Positions 1 through 13,185 of a stretch of DNA of 13,197 nt are shown piece after piece (the first letter of the stretch is position 1; each line of letters opens with the position of its first letter). Location: positions 1 to 13,197 of the forward strand of contig CAZDTP010000021.1 in NCBI GenBank assembly GCA_964508365.1, written 5' to 3'. The notes beneath the pieces were generated by a model, which had not been told where the DNA came from, made no database searches, and worked only from the letters and a program-made list of their open reading frames with translations. Position numbers and translations under genes: made by a program. This stretch comes from an uncultured archaeon (lineage in GTDB: Archaea > Asgardarchaeota > Lokiarchaeia > Sigyniarchaeales > SOKP01).

Positions 1-1827
1 TTCGATTTCAGGAATGGAACTTGACGCATTATGAATATCACTTAATTTGTTTTCATTTTTTTCTGCAATTTCTGTAGCATCGTCAATTGAGTTCATAAAT
101 TGAAGCGTAAAATCCGCTATTGCATCTTTAATGTTTTGTGTTGTGTCTTTTGTTGTAGCGGTTAAACTCCCTTGGAGTGTTTTTGCATTGTCTTCGTATT
201 TTGATTTATGATCTATTAACATTTCACCCAAATTTCGATCCAAGTCAGCTGACTCATCACCCCACAGATTTATCTCTTCAGTTATTTTATCGGATATATC
301 TCTTTTCCCACCAATAAATTTATCGTCAAGATCTCTAATCCAGTCTTCTTTAATTTTTTTGATATCCGTATCATACTCACTATAATGTTTTAAGGAATAT
401 TCTTTGTGATTATTAATTGCCTCATCGTATTGGCGGTTATGAGTTTTTAGCGAATTCTCTAACGAGTCTTTCAGCTTTATCGTGGTATCAGAGCAATCTT
501 TTACTCCATTTTGTAAAGTACTATCTATTTCACCTGACATGTCGGTTGCTAGCGTTTCTAATTGCACATTTATTGTTTCTTGAGCTTTATGGTCAAGTTC
601 TGTGGTTTCTGTTACGACATTATCGTTCTCTTTTGTCATTAAATCATTTACTTCTGTTTTCAACAAATCTCTGGTCTCTCTTGTATTTTTTATGTAATCT
701 TCACTTGTTTTTGTAAAATCCGCTTTCATTGGTTCAGTATAGGTTAAAATGTTTTGAATTGTAGTTTCGTGTCGCGCTTTGTACTTTTTCTTCTTTCCCA
801 TCCAGAAAAACCCCTTTTTGCCCATTTCCTCTGTAAAATCTGTAAACCTATTGGCATGCTCAAGTAAGTTATCAATAAGCGTTAAATTCATGCTTTTAAA
901 ATCGTTGGTTTGATCTGTTAATATTCTGTATCTTTCATCGACTGTAGCTTTTAAGTTAGTTTGAAGCGTATCAGTCGTATTTTTAAGATGGTTTAAATGC
1001 TCTTTTAACAAGTTAGAAATCCTTTCTTTAAGATCAACTACAATTTTATCCATCCGTTCTAAATACTTTTCGAGTATTTGTTCCATTCTTGGTTTAAGAT
1101 CGTTTGCAATAGTCTGATGTCTATCGACATGATCATCTAAGTTACTTTTTAATTCTTTTTCTAAATCCTCAACTCTTTTGGTAAAATCAGATAAAAGTTC
1201 TGCAATCAAGCTAGTTAAATCATTTTTTGCTTTATTAACGGTAGATTCGTTTTCATTTACTCTAGTATCGCAAATATTTTTGTTATTAGAGTTTAGAGTT
1301 TCCATAATGGAATGTAGATTTTCTTCTAAAGTCTTTGAAGTGTCAGTAAAACGATTTCTCGAGCTATTTATCCTCTCTCTTTTATTGTTATTCTTAGTAT
1401 CCGAATCTCCAAAAAATTGACTAATTTGATCTTCTACCGCAGTTGCCACTTCGTTAATGCTTTTATCTTGAATCGCTTCTAATTTCTCAAATCGATTTGA
1501 TTGATCAGTTAATATAGAATCTTTAATCTTCCCAATCTCGTCCCGGAATATTTTTGACTCTCCTATGTAAAGTTCAAAGAAAGGTTCTAATGGAATGAAT
1601 CTGTCTACTATTCCTGTTACTTTTTTAAGAAAGCCTTTCTCTACTAACCAATTAGTAATATCCAAAACACCCTCGTATGTTATTTCCGGGTGTGCTTCTG
1701 CTAAGGACAAATATACTTCAGATGAAGTTGCTCTTGGAACTCTTAGATATACGATGTATACATTAATCTGTTCTTCAGTGAAACCATATCGAGTGAAAAT
1801 TTCTTTCGTGAATTCTTTTAAGCTCAT
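1..1827 (-). CDS. TrmB-like winged-helix protein with a very long coiled-coil region (partial; 3' end runs off the window start)
   Basis: Manual translation of the minus strand from ATG at 1827 gives 609 codons with no stop down to base 1 (MSLKEFTKEIFTRYGFTEEQINVYIVYLRVPRATSSEVYLSL...ASSSIPEIE). A GGAG lies 8 nt upstream of the ATG. Residues ~14-82 (GFTEEQINVY...WLVEKGFLKKVTGIVDRFIPLEP) follow the TrmB wHTH pattern. Residues ~90-600 are E/K/D/T/L-rich, nearly Pro-free and helical-looking. Confidence 0.9.
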   Translation of the reverse strand, partial: MSLKEFTKEIFTRYGFTEEQINVYIVYLRVPRATSSEVYLSLAEAHPEITYEGVLDITNWLVEKGFLKKVTGIVDRFIPLEPFFELYIGESKIFRDEIGKIKDSILTDQSNRFEKLEAIQDKSINEVATAVEDQISQFFGDSDTKNNNKRERINSSRNRFTDTSKTLEENLHSIMETLNSNNKNICDTRVNENESTVNKAKNDLTSLIAELLSDFTKRVEDLEKELKSNLDDHVDRHQTIANDLKPRMEQILEKYLERMDKIVVDLKERISNLLKEHLNHLKNTTDTLQTNLKATVDERYRILTDQTNDFKSMNLTLIDNLLEHANRFTDFTEEMGKKGFFWMGKKKKYKARHETTIQNILTYTEPMKADFTKTSEDYIKNTRETRDLLKTEVNDLMTKENDNVVTETTELDHKAQETINVQLETLATDMSGEIDSTLQNGVKDCSDTTIKLKDSLENSLKTHNRQYDEAINNHKEYSLKHYSEYDTDIKKIKEDWIRDLDDKFIGGKRDISDKITEEINLWGDESADLDRNLGEMLIDHKSKYEDNAKTLQGSLTATTKDTTQNIKDAIADFTLQFMNSIDDATEIAEKNENKLSDIHNASSSIPEIE

Positions 1828-2313: not shown

Positions 2314-3006
2314 ATGAAAAAATTAAGTAAAATTCTCTTAGGAACATTTTTCCTAATGATAGTATTTTCAACCTTCATGTCATTCAATGTTGTCGCCGTT
2401 GGTAATCCTGATGTAACATTTGAAATTCCAGGTGACACATACCACAAACATATTAACGCTAGTGTTGCCACAATGTTTAGATTTAGACAAAGAACACAAT
2501 TGAGACTTAATGCAAGCGTAAATTTAGATGTAAACTTTGATTGTGATGCGTTAAGGATTGGTGATAAAGATTTTGCTCTTGAGGTTGAAGGCACTGGGGA
2601 TCTCACAATGAATATGACTTGTAGGGAAGAACAGGCAGAGTTAGGGTTAATGAAAGGAAATACTTATCAAATAAGAAATCGTAATCGCAATAATTACCAA
2701 TACCAAGAAGGATTTGTTCTCACATTAGAATGTAATGGAACCTTTACACGAGCAAGATTAAGTATAAGGGCTACTAACGAAAATCGAATAGGGCAATGGG
2801 CTTACTTTGATAACGCAACACAAGAATGGGTTAGCGTCGGTACAACTGAAAAAGATGGTTATTTAACTGCAGAGACAGCTCACTTTTCGACGTGGACAAT
2901 ACTTTTACCGGATTATACACTACTTATCATCGGGTTCAGCATTGGTGGTGGAATTGCTGCGTTAATAATAATCGGTTTAGTGTTCTACATAAAAAAGAGA
3001 AAATAA
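2314..3006 (+). CDS. Secreted, C-terminally membrane-anchored beta-rich surface protein with a GPS/ZU5-like HFS motif
   Basis: N-terminal signal-like segment (MKKLSKILLGTFFLMIVFSTFMSFNVVA). Five N-x-S/T sequons. W162...W172...H190-F191-S192, then a Gly-rich TM helix (~203-226) and a KKRK tail. Confidence 0.85.
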   Translation: MKKLSKILLGTFFLMIVFSTFMSFNVVAVGNPDVTFEIPGDTYHKHINASVATMFRFRQRTQLRLNASVNLDVNFDCDALRIGDKDFALEVEGTGDLTMNMTCREEQAELGLMKGNTYQIRNRNRNNYQYQEGFVLTLECNGTFTRARLSIRATNENRIGQWAYFDNATQEWVSVGTTEKDGYLTAETAHFSTWTILLPDYTLLIIGFSIGGGIAALIIIGLVFYIKKRK

Positions 3007-3089: not shown

Positions 3090-4343
3090 ATGATTACAAT
3101 AAAATTGAAGAAGAGATCAAAATTATTCAGTATTTTTGTTCTATTATTAGTATTCATTAATTTTAATATTCTAATTTCTCAAGTTTTATCATACAGGACT
3201 GAAAATATTTCAGGATTTTATACTCATGATAACATCTACCCTAACGAGTCTGTGAAATATATCTTTTTTAACAACATAATTTTCGATATCTCCACCGATT
3301 CTTTTATCGATCTTAATATCCAATACGAAAATAATATTGAAAATCGTCAAGTATCTTTTCTTATCAACAATAGCAACCCTATTTCCCTCAATATAAGTTC
3401 TAAACTGTCAATGCAGAATTTCGGAATGCCTAAAACGCCTCAAGAACCGAAAAAAGGCGAAACTCAATTTCAGTATCGATATAATTGCATTCTACGAATT
3501 CAAACTAATACCACAATAGAATATCTGACAATATCCAGTATTAAAAAGTCGTCATATGGCTTAAATCCTAATTTAGAATATTCTTTAATGTTGTATGAAT
3601 CTTCACAAGACTCTTGGGAGCTTATTGATACTACCGAAATATTGAATGAATCTAATTCAGAATATACTTTAGCTGGTTCAGTCTCTAACCTACAAGCAGA
3701 TACAGAATATTTTATTACTTTCTACGAGGTCACCAAAATCTTTGACAATTGGTTTTTAGTGATTTTTTTAATTGTTGGTGCTTTAGGAATTGCTTCAATC
3801 GCGATTTTAATTTCAAAAAAAGATTATTTCCAATACCTAAAAACTAGAACCATTCCAATTGAAAAGGGTGCGCATCGTTTAAGCTTAGAAGACGTCTTAG
3901 AGAACGAGAATAGGAATAGAATTATTGACCTAATTCTTAAAGAACCTGGAATTCATTTTAATGAGTTACTAAGAAAAACTGAAATAGCTGCGGGTAATCT
4001 TGTCTGGCACCTCGATATTTTAGAAACTTACAAGGTAGTGGGTAAAAAAAGGATCGGAAATTTCATAGCATACTTTCCGTATTATCAAAAGAATCCTATT
4101 TCGAACCTCGATCTTCAATTGAGTAAGAGTAAGGTAACATTAGATATTCTCGAAATGATCGAGAAAGAGCCAGGTCTTTGGAACAGTGTAATTACAAAAC
4201 ATTTTAAGGTTGACCATAAAACAATTCAATATCATATTAATAAGTTAAAGGACCTAAATCTCATTCTATTCAGAAGCGAAGGTAGAAAGAAAAAAATCTT
4301 TCCCAATTTGGAATCAGATTATTTTAATAACAAGGATAAGTAG
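3090..4343 (+). CDS. Membrane-tethered transcription regulator: ectodomain + TM + tandem winged-helix (ArsR/COG3398-like)
   Basis: N-terminal hydrophobic segment (~12-34). Ectodomain with six N-x-S/T sequons. TM WFLVIFLIVGALGIASIAILIS (221-242). Two mutually similar wHTH repeats follow: NRNRIIDLILKEPGIHFNELLRKTEIAAGNLVWHLDILE and VTLDILEMIEKEPGLWNSVITKHFKVDHKTIQYHINKLK. Confidence 0.85.
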   Translation: MITIKLKKRSKLFSIFVLLLVFINFNILISQVLSYRTENISGFYTHDNIYPNESVKYIFFNNIIFDISTDSFIDLNIQYENNIENRQVSFLINNSNPISLNISSKLSMQNFGMPKTPQEPKKGETQFQYRYNCILRIQTNTTIEYLTISSIKKSSYGLNPNLEYSLMLYESSQDSWELIDTTEILNESNSEYTLAGSVSNLQADTEYFITFYEVTKIFDNWFLVIFLIVGALGIASIAILISKKDYFQYLKTRTIPIEKGAHRLSLEDVLENENRNRIIDLILKEPGIHFNELLRKTEIAAGNLVWHLDILETYKVVGKKRIGNFIAYFPYYQKNPISNLDLQLSKSKVTLDILEMIEKEPGLWNSVITKHFKVDHKTIQYHINKLKDLNLILFRSEGRKKKIFPNLESDYFNNKDK

Positions 4344-10547: not shown

Positions 10548-11315
10548 TTACTCTTTCTTAACAAATTTTTCCATTCTTTTTTTAAGTTCTTCAGATTGCC
10601 CAGTTGTAATCATTGCTATTGATTCGCGTGCTAAAACGGATTCAATACTTAAATCTTGATTTTCATTTATAAACTTCTTTATATACTGAAGAGCAAGGTG
10701 GTCTCTTGACACAATTATATTAGCAGTTTTTTTTAAGATTCTTGATAGGCTTGGTGTTGGACATACTTGATTAACCAGCCCTATTCTATGTGCTTCTTCA
10801 GCAGAGAGTTCTTTACCCATTATCATCAATTCTTTGGCTCTTGCTTCCCCTATTATTCTAGGTAAAAGTTTAGTCGAAGCATTAGAAAAGAAAAGCCCTA
10901 CTCCGACTTCAGGAAGCATAATTCGTGTATCTTCTGCTGCGATTTTATAATCACAGATGAGAGTATGTTCAAATCCACCCCCTATCACCCACCCATGGTA
11001 GCCAACTATTATTATCCCTGGATGGGCAATCATTTTTCGCGTTAGAATTTGCCAAGATTCAAGAAACTCTATTGCTTCTGCAAGTCGTTCTTTATTTGTA
11101 AGCAATTCATAACCATACTTCAGATCAGCTCCTACTGTAAAATGCTTCCCATTAGCTGCATAAATAACACAAACATCTCTATTCTCTGCACTTAATTCGA
11201 AATAATCCCCTAGACGTTTAAGGAGTGGAAGATCAATTGTGTTTCTTTGATCTGGTTTGTTGAGTGTGATCTTTCCTATATTTCCCTCTTTTTCATATAA
11301 AACAACATCATCCAC
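10548..11315 (-). CDS. Enoyl-CoA hydratase/isomerase (crotonase) family
   Basis: ITLNKPDQRN, HFTVGADL, GWVIGGGFE and LPEVGVG; both crotonase catalytic Glu positions are present. GTG start with GAGG 8 nt upstream. Confidence 0.92.
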   Translation of the reverse strand: MDDVVLYEKEGNIGKITLNKPDQRNTIDLPLLKRLGDYFELSAENRDVCVIYAANGKHFTVGADLKYGYELLTNKERLAEAIEFLESWQILTRKMIAHPGIIIVGYHGWVIGGGFEHTLICDYKIAAEDTRIMLPEVGVGLFFSNASTKLLPRIIGEARAKELMIMGKELSAEEAHRIGLVNQVCPTPSLSRILKKTANIIVSRDHLALQYIKKFINENQDLSIESVLARESIAMITTGQSEELKKRMEKFVKKE

Positions 11316-11592: not shown

Positions 11593-13185
11593 ATGACTAA
11601 AGGATATTTTGGATTATTATTGCATGGTCATATACCTTGGTGTAAGAAGAGCGGGGTGTGGCCTGCAGGAGAACAGTGGTATACTGAAGCAGCTCTGGAA
11701 ACTTATATCCCTCTATTGAATGTTCTAAGGGAGCTTAAAGAAAAAAGAATTAAGACTGCATTAACAATTAATATCACCCCAATATTGGCAGAAACGATGG
11801 CCGATAACTACATGAAAGAACGCTTTATTCAATATGTTGAAGACTTAATAAAAAGAGCTAAATCTGACATTCAAAAATATACTAATCATCCTTCAAGAAA
11901 GAAAATTGCCGAATTTTATTTGCATAATTTTGAAAATAACCTTTCTACTTTTTATCATAATTATTACACCGACCTTTTAGGTACCTTTAAATGGTTTCAA
12001 GATGAGAAGATGATAGAATTAATAACATGTGCCGCAACTCATGGTTTTTTACCACTTTTTGAGCGAGATTCTAGCATTTTTTCTCAGATACAACTTGCTG
12101 TTGAGACCCACAAAAAATACTTTAAGAAAGAACCAAAAGGTATATGGCTTCCCGAATGTGCGTATCGTCCTAAAAAGAAACTTGGAAATACACTACGAGA
12201 AAGCATTGATTACTGGCTACACAACTCTGGGATAGAATATTTTTTTGTTGATTCTCATGGAATTTTAACTGCTGAGATTATTGAGAGTAAAAACCAATTA
12301 GGTTTAAACACTAACTTTGGATATAATTTAGAAACCGGAGTTTCAGTTTTTGGTAGGAATATAAACACGAGCAGACAAGTATGGGATGCACAAATAGGGT
12401 ATCCTGGTAATGGATATTATAGAGAATTTCATAAAAAAGATTATGATTCTGGATTACAATATTGGAGGATTACAGATAAATCCATTGGCAGCGAGCAGAA
12501 GGAACTATATGATATAGAAAGAGCCCAAGAGAATGTTAAGTTTGACGCAGATCATTTTGTTTCTTCTCTTCAAAAAGAAGTGGCATCATTTTCAAGTAAA
12601 TATAACGAGAAAGGCATTATTGTATCCCCCTATGATTTTGAACTGTTTGGTCATTGGTGGATGGAGGGAATAACATGGCTTAAAAGAGTCTTTGAATTAA
12701 TACATGGAGAAAAAGACATCAAGATGATATCATTTTCAGCATTTCTTTCTAAAAATAAAGATAAGTTTTCTATTATTAAGATGAAGGAAAGTAGTTGGGG
12801 TGAAGGCGGTCATTTTCAAGTTTGGAAAAATCCAGAACATGGCTGGATGTGGCCTTATATTAATAGTTCTATGACAGAGTTTGAAAATGTTCTAGCATTA
12901 TATCCGAATCCTAACCAATCACAACAAAGGACTTTAAAACAGATTGCTAGAGAACTATTATTAATGGAAGGAAGCGATTGGCCATTTCTCTTATATACTA
13001 AGCAAGCTAAAGATTATGCTAATCAACGTTTTCACCATCATCATCAAAGATTTAATAAATTAATTTGGGCGGCTAAAAATTTCAATGATAAAAGCCGGTT
13101 ATCCAAAAGCGAATTAGAAGAAATTGAGTCCATTGACTCTTGTTTCCAAGATATCAATTTAGACTATTTTCGTAAGATAGATTAA
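11593..13185 (+). CDS. GH57 1,4-alpha-glucan branching enzyme (DUF1957 C-terminal domain)
   Basis: GH57 conserved regions: HGHIPW, ETYIPLL, ATHGFLP, GIWLPECAY (nucleophile E188), PYDFELFGHWWMEG (acid/base D348), SSWGEGG, RELLLMEGSDWPF. Confidence 0.93.
   Translation: MTKGYFGLLLHGHIPWCKKSGVWPAGEQWYTEAALETYIPLLNVLRELKEKRIKTALTINITPILAETMADNYMKERFIQYVEDLIKRAKSDIQKYTNHPSRKKIAEFYLHNFENNLSTFYHNYYTDLLGTFKWFQDEKMIELITCAATHGFLPLFERDSSIFSQIQLAVETHKKYFKKEPKGIWLPECAYRPKKKLGNTLRESIDYWLHNSGIEYFFVDSHGILTAEIIESKNQLGLNTNFGYNLETGVSVFGRNINTSRQVWDAQIGYPGNGYYREFHKKDYDSGLQYWRITDKSIGSEQKELYDIERAQENVKFDADHFVSSLQKEVASFSSKYNEKGIIVSPYDFELFGHWWMEGITWLKRVFELIHGEKDIKMISFSAFLSKNKDKFSIIKMKESSWGEGGHFQVWKNPEHGWMWPYINSSMTEFENVLALYPNPNQSQQRTLKQIARELLLMEGSDWPFLLYTKQAKDYANQRFHHHHQRFNKLIWAAKNFNDKSRLSKSELEEIESIDSCFQDINLDYFRKID

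Follow-up and report, generated by a model that had tools for sequence, protein, structure and literature searches.

TrmBL2, a chromatin protein of the Thermococcales (TK0471/PF0496; PDB entries 5bpd, 5box, 5bpi, and 5bqt), is 264 amino acids long and consists of a TrmB-type winged helix-turn-helix (wHTH), one linker helix of about 40 residues, and a phospholipase D-like (PLD-like) domain. In TrmB, the sugar-responsive protein of Pyrococcus furiosus and Thermococcus litoralis (3qph and 2f5t), a single amphipathic coiled-coil helix after the wHTH mediates dimerization, and Y50 of the P. furiosus protein is a DNA-binding residue, its counterparts being Y49-Y61 in TrmBL1, TrmBL2, VNG1451C, and MalR (PMC4158304). 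These two proteins, TrmBL2 followed by TrmB, are the closest known ones to the product of a gene found at the edge of the DNA analyzed here. This DNA, referred to below as the window, is a stretch of 13,197 nucleotides from an uncultured archaeon of the Lokiarchaeia and corresponds to the first 13,197 bases of contig C21 in an assembly of 4.07 Mb and 149 contigs. The gene occupies positions 1-1827 of the minus strand, and we call its product the rod protein.

The rod protein shares with TrmBL2 the order of a TrmB-type wHTH, an amphipathic helix, and a PLD-like domain, as well as the lack of a sugar-binding C-subdomain. However, in place of the short linker helix it carries a fold-back rod of about 520 residues between the head domains, Leu occupies the position of the DNA-reading Tyr50 of TrmBL2 (PMC4158304), a basic-aromatic apex has been added, and the two sequences are only 12-13% identical. 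Its likeness to TrmB lies in a wHTH that aligns by sequence, in a coiled-coil helix following this wHTH, and in the PLD-like N-subdomain, for which TrmB provided the best superposition of all solved structures, whereas the sugar-binding subdomain and Y50 are missing and the linker helix is about 13-fold expanded and folded back. Its wHTH, linker helix, and PLD-like subdomain place the rod protein by descent in the TrmB family and not among the PLD enzymes, SMC proteins, or apolipoproteins. That its structure is a TrmB-derived head on an antiparallel fold-back rod is a conclusion that we hold with high confidence.

The gene and the layout of its product

The minus-strand frame is free of stops from an ATG at 1825-1827 to base 1 of the window, that is over 609 codons, and is open at its 3' end. 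As the original prediction, made from the letters of the window, had remarked, the gene is missing from the accompanying list of open reading frames; a frame that extends past the end of the source enters such a list only when open ends are permitted. Base 1 of the window is also base 1 of contig C21, so the gene is truncated by the assembly. Its full length is 751 codons, as shown by the database protein P0002 (751 amino acids), which is 100% identical to all 609 residues encoded in the window; the complete reading frame was recovered by way of this protein, the contig ending here. The missing 142 C-terminal residues were sought in the organism's own assembly but were not found, so that the gap represents an assembly break and not a real truncation, and everything said below on residues 610-751 rests on the full-length P0002. 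More than 100 orthologues of 70-95% identity, derived from Lokiarchaeota/Promethearchaeota metagenome bins, are nearly all exactly 751 amino acids long, the few shorter ones being partial records, and every orthologue begins with M-S-L-K-E-F.

An AlphaFold2 model of P0002, built on 85 aligned homologues, had a mean predicted local distance difference test score (pLDDT) of 79.3. It consists of a wHTH (residues 8-79), a helix (83-337), a low-confidence break (338-345), a second helix (346-603), a linker (604-612), and an alpha/beta domain (613-749). On the minus strand of the window, the wHTH as delimited from the secondary structure of the model, PF01978, profile matches, and structural alignments (residues 1-82) is encoded at 1582-1827, arm 1 of the rod (residues 83-337) at 817-1581, and arm 2 (residues 346-603) at 19-792. 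Between the arms lies the tip, a Gly-flanked basic-aromatic loop recognized by its pLDDT, composition, and conservation (residues 336-352; 772-822), within which the model places the helix break (793-816). The Ser/Pro linker that leads to the C-terminal domain begins in the last codons, 1-18 (residues 604-609), where the gene is cut by the contig end. These elements stand where the original prediction had put them, including the short Gly-flanked break between the helices and the linker at the window edge. The predicted rod length of 35-40 nm agrees as well with the model, in which about 255 residues at 0.15 nm each give about 38 nm.

The rod and the pairing of its arms

Arm 1 is one continuous helix of 255 residues with 22 consecutive hendecads in constant register; arm 2, likewise an unbroken helix (258 residues), returns to the head. 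Hydrophobic residues recur along the arms with a period of 3.67 and not 3.5, in a phase that stays constant over about 250 residues of each arm; in arm 1 they fall on hendecad positions 1, 4, 5, 8, and 9. The coiled-coil rod that had been predicted is thus correct as to the two long paired helices, but its seam is hendecad rather than the classical heptad. The amphipathic helix expected after a TrmB-type wHTH is present in expanded form, with helix 83-337 continuing from the wHTH and helix 346-603 leading into the C-terminal domain; roughly the final 50 residues of arm 2 can be aligned with the linker helix of TrmBL2.

The only Pfam family found along the rod was PF01442 (Apolipoprotein), with 31.5-33.2 bits against a cut-off of 90 bits. 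In the family, 46 of 49 members matched it, some distant relatives with E-values down to 1.5e-35, and ApoLp-III and phasin matches occurred in some. Apolipoproteins A-I, A-IV, and E (PF01442) have 11-residue amphipathic repeats in common with the rod protein, and it is this periodicity, together with composition, that accounts for the match. The sub-threshold apolipoprotein, ExoVII, and ZorA matches in single-sequence Pfam, NCBIfam, and PDB scans were accordingly read as noise of long helices and periodicity. One might nevertheless imagine a lipid-surface protein of the apolipoprotein kind, whose 11-residue repeats open onto a lipid surface and whose closed hairpin is the lipid-free state, especially as the family profile matches apoA-IV and apoA-I in the PDB and the periodicity is 11/3. 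This seems very unlikely to us: the score is far under the cut-off, only about 30% of the rod residues are hydrophobic, the arms are continuous, self-pairing, and strongly acidic (net charge -12 in arm 1 and -26 in arm 2) without proline punctuations, and the exact balance of the arms described below would be expected for helices that pair with each other and not for helices lying on lipid.

That the arms run antiparallel, as had been predicted, was supported by four kinds of evidence, the geometry of the hairpin being derived from structural alignments and evolution. First, in structural alignments (VIA), residues 181-499 of the model, which span the tip, matched the chemoreceptor hairpin 2ch7 with a Z-score of 12.1 over 306 residues, and in three VIA rows the aligned range extended from the wHTH to residues 603-607, which suggests that the end of arm 2 lies beside the wHTH.

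Second, insertions and deletions (indels) are paired. With P0002 as the reference, we aligned five database homologues and 14 orthologues from other Asgard genomes (19 sequences of 40-66% identity), and the net length change was found to match between arm 1 and arm 2. The arms were unchanged (0/0) in four cases; the other cases were +11/+11 with about 4 additional residues beside the tip (one), +40/+40 (five, one of them scored +40/+42), +44/+44 (two), +51/+51 (four, one of them scored +51/+52), +59/+62 (one), +84/+84 (one), +106/+106 (two), and +150/+150 (one). The sites of the paired insertions are mirrored about residue 342 (reference positions 164-211 against 481-536), in one genome an 11-residue deletion at reference position 302 is paired with an 11-residue deletion at position 396, and small +4 indels are located exactly at the tip. 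Rod length classes fall into two series, 11n and 40+11n (e.g., L025-L035); the steps are therefore whole hendecads, and the seam stays in phase. Indel pairing could not be used in very distant members (25-35% identity), whose alignments were too noisy. That both arms should lengthen together is itself a puzzle.

Third, the balance of the arms, on which the original prediction had staked its hairpin, also holds in a far more distant relative. P0203 (1089 amino acids, about 16% identity), modeled from a shallow alignment with a pLDDT of 70, has arms of about 428 and 431 residues, composed of helices 76-254, 258-503, 509-753, and 757-902 with a break at 504-508 and short helices up to residue 939. 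Its two kinks (255-257 and 754-756) are mirrored, 255+756 giving 1011 and 503+509 giving 1012. At the moderate confidence of this model, the mirrored breaks would form an SMC-like elbow. A separate observation concerns P0251 (1794 amino acids), which compared with P0211 (1122 amino acids) has about 680 extra residues close to the rod midpoint; if the hairpin holds there, each arm would gain about 340 residues (about 50 nm), and the rod would exceed 100 nm.

Fourth, covariation between the arms was calculated as mutual information with average product correction (MI/APC) on 114 ungapped orthologues with an effective number of 26, over the antidiagonals with enough pairs (i+j of about 440-935). 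The best inter-arm antidiagonals were those with i+j = 682-686 (z about 3), which is the register expected from the model, and 20% of the top 100 inter-arm pairs fell within i+j 676-694 as against 8% expected. As these pairs are not independent, we take covariation as supporting evidence only.

The paired indels and the covariation at i+j of about 684 would fit pairing between two chains equally well. In an extended domain-swapped antiparallel dimer, each chain would form a helix of about 77 nm kinked at its Gly-rich centre, with arm 1 of chain A packed on arm 2 of chain B; a TrmB-like head (the wHTH of A with the PLD-like domain of B) would then stand at each end and the basic patches in mid-rod, and the dimer would bridge distant sites, for example two DNA segments. 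For TrmB itself, a domain-swapped dimer hinged at the coiled-coil helix has been described (PMC4158304). The rod also matches apolipoproteins A-I and A-IV by sequence. The crystal structure of apolipoprotein A-IV is reportedly a helix-swapped dimer. We nevertheless consider this arrangement unlikely and favour the intramolecular hairpin, since the monomer model folds back, as seen in the alignment to 2ch7 and in the VIA ranges from the wHTH to residues 603-607, and since the Gly-flanked, low-confidence centre with its +4 indels suits a turn better than a continuous helix.

In working principle, the closest analogues of such a hairpin are the arms of SMC, Rad50, and MukB and the chemoreceptor hairpin, in all of which the chain ends meet at the head, the arm is antiparallel, the apex is conserved, and the lengths are balanced. 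The rod protein could accordingly be thought of as an SMC/Rad50-like bridge, in which two loci are held by heads about 76 nm apart, with the tips either attached to each other or bound to a second DNA. The rod protein and these arms have a common topology, in which an antiparallel coiled coil with a conserved apex connects the two halves of the head; the rod can be aligned loosely with the arms of cohesin and Smc5/6, the kinks of P0203 resemble an elbow, and a tip with a net charge of +8 could bind nucleic acid as well as lipid. Unlike these analogues, however, the rod protein has no ATPase head, hinge, zinc hook, or signalling tip motif, and its seam is hendecad. Pfam and NCBIfam scans of the rod protein returned no ATPase family, its head and apex are not of the SMC/Rad50 type (a Cys pair is missing from the tip, a region of low model confidence), and no relationship was detectable by sequence. 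With root-mean-square deviations (rmsd) of 15-94 Å, the VIA alignments to SMC arms show only "long helical hairpin". A bridging protein of this kind is, in our judgment, extremely unlikely.

Head, tip, and proposed role

The original prediction read the N-terminus as a TrmB-type wHTH, and the family bears this out, although the signal is weak for the single protein. In the model, helices 18-29, 35-45, and 51-63 are followed by a wing at 67-79 (DSSP). PF01978 matched this protein alone with an E-value of 0.016 and 15.5 bits, under its cut-off of 25.6, but it matched 41 of the 49 full-length family members, the best with 4.7e-13. A family profile compared with the PDB found TrmBL2 (5bpd, 1.2e-12, profile positions 1-94) and TrmB (3qph, 3.3e-12, positions 8-104), and a profile of the close clade also matched TrmB 3qph (E 1.7e-5), residues 11-91 aligning on 11-87. 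By structure (VIA), residues 3-81 aligned to the wHTH domains of Fur, PerR, and BlaI with Z-scores of 11-12.

The C-terminal domain gave by sequence only a weak match to FilR1_middle (E 0.05), and comparison of folds was required. Residues 612-751 of the P0002 model superposed on TrmB 2f5t with a Z-score of 17.7 (VIA; rmsd 2.0 Å over 131 residues, 18% identity), on 3qph with 17.5, on TrmBL2 with 15-16, and on the PLD nucleases Nuc, Zucchini, and F13 with 12-15. Foldseek with the whole model likewise returned TrmBL2 and TrmB as the best matches (E about 2e-7), followed by PLD-family nucleases. The alignment with TrmBL2 begins at model residue 553 (553-751 against residues 70-264 of the chain; Z 16) and thus takes in the end of arm 2 together with the C-terminal domain. 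No match to PF11495 (Regulator_TrmB, the sugar-binding C-subdomain) was obtained up to an E-value of 10, and the chain stops at residue 751, directly after the PLD-like domain; the head is therefore of a truncated TrmBL2 type, and of the TrmB effector domain that had been predicted, the PLD-like part is present while the sugar-binding subdomain is absent. A PLD enzyme was considered as well and rejected: the fold matches, but residues 610-751 contain no histidine, and the catalytic H-x-K-(x)4-D (HKD) motif is therefore missing. The domain carries an invariant patch, R704-D705-x-E707-E708, which is a second candidate binding site.

One end of the rod is a head formed by the wHTH together with the PLD-like domain, and the conserved Gly-flanked basic-aromatic loop is the other end. 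The break carries the patch G-K-K-G-F-F-W-M-G-K-K-K-K-Y-K; residues 336-352 have a net charge of +8, the residues F-F-W-M-Y, and three Gly, and lie at the exact midpoint of the rod. pLDDT falls under 50 at 337-348, the tip stands at the midpoint in the homologues too, and a Gly-flanked low-confidence loop is found in every close homologue. On a basic-hydrophobic score of our own (Wimley-White interfacial scale with Lys/Arg set to +2), the tip was the sole strong peak in the protein, at 1.11 as against 0.54 for the next one. Such a peak is a signature of peripheral membrane-binding loops. Column entropy across the break (338-346) was 0.22 compared with 0.46 in the arms, the break being the better conserved.

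Taken together, the sequence comparisons demonstrate strict selection on the length of the rod, which is 751 amino acids as a whole protein in nearly all family members and which otherwise changes equally, by whole hendecads, on both arms. A length that is exact to the residue across many genera and that changes only in equal whole-hendecad steps is itself the object of selection, which is the hallmark of a spacer, ruler, or tether rather than of a regulator. The explanation that we consider moderately probable is that the rod protein is a cytoplasmic structural protein derived from a TrmBL2-like regulator. The linker helix of TrmB/TrmBL2 would have expanded into two helices of about 255 residues that lie antiparallel along an uninterrupted hendecad seam. 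That the protein acts as a fixed-length spacer or tether, as we infer from this pattern, is possible but falls short of probable. The tip would attach to an anionic surface, for which the inner side of the membrane is the most likely candidate, and the head would bind a partner, either DNA through the conserved wing (K68 and R76) or a ligand or protein through R704-D705-x-E707-E708. The analogy with dimeric TrmB and the width of the hydrophobic stripe (4-5 of 11 positions) make it probable that two hairpins dimerize into a four-helix rod. More speculatively, this dimer may serve the Lokiarchaeia and, in varied form, the majority of Asgard archaea as a dedicated molecular ruler of fixed, lineage-specific length (38 nm, lengthened by whole hendecads to about 64 nm or more), with its tip in the membrane and its other end holding the nucleoid or another partner at a set distance; we offer this idea only tentatively.

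Several observations weigh against this explanation. Y50 of P. furiosus TrmB aligns to L55 of the rod protein (and D51 to D56), so the recognition tyrosine is missing; none of the 49 family members has Tyr in this column, the orthologues carrying L, I, or V. The recognition helix (47-64) has a net charge of -3. The predicted template modelling score of the P0002 model is low (0.36), as expected for a rod, and the monomer model does not discriminate between a hairpin within one chain and a swapped dimer, both of which agree with the paired indels and the covariation. A mirror correlation of conservation between the arms (r 0.50 at i+j of about 680) had to be rejected as evidence, since a parallel-shift control gave r 0.58 and the measure was non-discriminating. 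Finally, the strong basic-aromatic tip is limited to the 751-residue clade and its nearer relatives and is weaker in P0123 and distant members; the membrane role may therefore hold for this clade only.

Because the DNA-reading tyrosine of TrmB has been lost throughout the family, binding of DNA by the wHTH appears doubtful, and the DNA end of the DNA-to-membrane tether originally proposed is weakened. The five short canonical TrmB-like proteins of the same genome all keep this tyrosine (5/5). We relied on the Tyr50 column and not on the charge of the wHTH, whose family mean of -1.4 is suggestive but not decisive. The wing residues K68 and R76 are conserved (R76 in 42 of 49 members), so nonspecific contact with DNA would still be possible.

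The same residues bear on the view that the protein is a conventional TrmB-type regulator, the head of which binds operators and an effector while the rod serves as a dimerization or sensor module, for example for sequestration at the membrane depending on lipid state. Besides the conserved wing, this view can call on the presence of a TrmB-type wHTH and an effector-type domain, on the invariant R-D-x-E-E patch, which could be a ligand site, and on the name "sugar-specific transcriptional regulator TrmB" given to relatives in some JGI records. It is, however, improbable: the sugar-binding subdomain is absent, the equivalent of Y50 is lost in 49 of 49 members, the gene has no conserved neighbouring target operon, and the strict length of the rod with its paired whole-hendecad indels points to a structural role for length. 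We retain the structural protein as the best explanation.

Distribution, genomic context, and significance

The wider family comprised 173 cluster representatives at E ≤ 0.001 among 1.84 billion, and a match at E ≤ 1e-5 was present in 271 of 399 Asgard genomes and in 71 of the 90 high-quality ones. An orthologue was found in 123 of the 134 genomes of the window's family and in 38 of the 41 of its genus, mostly as one full-length (1-751) copy. Named relatives belong to Lokiarchaeota/Promethearchaeota, Helarchaeota, Jordarchaeales, and Baldrarchaeia, homologues also occur in complete, single-contig genomes of a sister family, and a protein atlas returned only Promethearchaeota clusters and ordinary TrmB families. 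The best-conserved stretches of the protein are residues 317-331 (just before the tip), 568-582 (the base of arm 2), the C-terminal 15 residues, 245-259, and the tip, and the most variable ones (176-200 and 476-525) are the sites of the paired insertions. In one single-contig genome, G188, the orthologue lies in two pieces, C1:2121572-2123140 (residues 1-523) and C1:1508917-1510305 (residues 289-751), about 0.6 Mb apart and overlapping by about 235 residues, which could reflect a rearrangement, a partial duplication, or a misassembly.

The genome of the window encodes two paralogues with a TrmB-type wHTH, a shorter helical region (250-300 residues), and a related PLD-like domain. The one on contig C64 (locus L011, 163-2397, minus strand) has 744 amino acids, an N-terminal zinc-ribbon-like segment with a Cys pair, and a long C-terminal tail; the other, on contig C75 (locus L010, 1102-3126, plus strand), has 674 amino acids, a Pro/Thr-rich linker, and a C-terminal helical domain. 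The five ordinary TrmB-like proteins mentioned above are 267-287 amino acids long and show marginal BLAST similarity to the rod protein.

Upstream of the rod gene, an AT-rich intergenic region of 486 bp (1828-2313), delimited from the sequence and the list of reading frames, is presumed to contain its promoter. An open reading frame of 48 codons on the minus strand (2064-2210) ends in a hydrophobic helix followed by R-G-R-K; it could encode a small membrane protein or be due to chance, and the relative L003 has a gene for 67 amino acids at the equivalent place on the opposite strand. Divergent from the rod gene, the plus strand encodes a protein of 230 amino acids (2314-3006) with an N-terminal signal or transmembrane (TM) segment, a C-terminal TM anchor, and no Pfam match, and then a protein of 417 amino acids (3090-4343), in which an N-terminal TM segment, a non-cytoplasmic domain, and a second TM segment are followed by an HVO_0163-type helix-turn-helix (PF24266, 5.8e-15) and an ArsR-like wHTH. 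Judged by these domains, the latter looks like a membrane-anchored transcription factor. This pair stands beside the rod gene in close relatives (L002 and L003) but is lost in a relative of 46% identity (L004), and no conserved operon partner emerged from the neighbourhood comparison of relatives. Synteny is kept on a larger scale (M24 peptidase, nitroreductase, and GH57). Farther along the window are an HpaB-family flavoprotein (PF11794/PF03241; 8992-10524, plus strand), an enoyl-CoA hydratase (10548-11315, minus strand), and a GH57 branching-enzyme-like protein (11593-13185, plus strand), with two M24 peptidases, a cation-efflux protein with a wHTH, and a nitroreductase between these metabolic genes and the rod gene. 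No Rfam matches were found within the window.

No description of this architecture was found in the literature, the coverage of which was incomplete, so that its absence is unproven. As far as we have seen, the extent and exactness of the paired indels across the 19 homologues, their quantization in hendecads, the mirrored kinks of the 64-nm relative, and the domain-swap alternative are new.

Little is known about the internal organization of the cells of Asgard archaea, the closest known relatives of the eukaryotes. A near-universal and mostly single-copy gene of one Lokiarchaeial family encodes a protein whose shape, the head of a transcription factor on a fold-back rod of about 38 nm, is both unusual and well defined, and the family is a clean natural example of a short linker helix evolving into an SMC-like arm. 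If the rod does act as a ruler, it would be a prokaryotic device, built from a transcription factor, by which these nearest relatives of the eukaryotes organize the space separating membrane and genome. The homologues in complete genomes of the sister family may make work in cultured strains possible, and the rod protein is thus of high interest for the cell biology of Asgard archaea.

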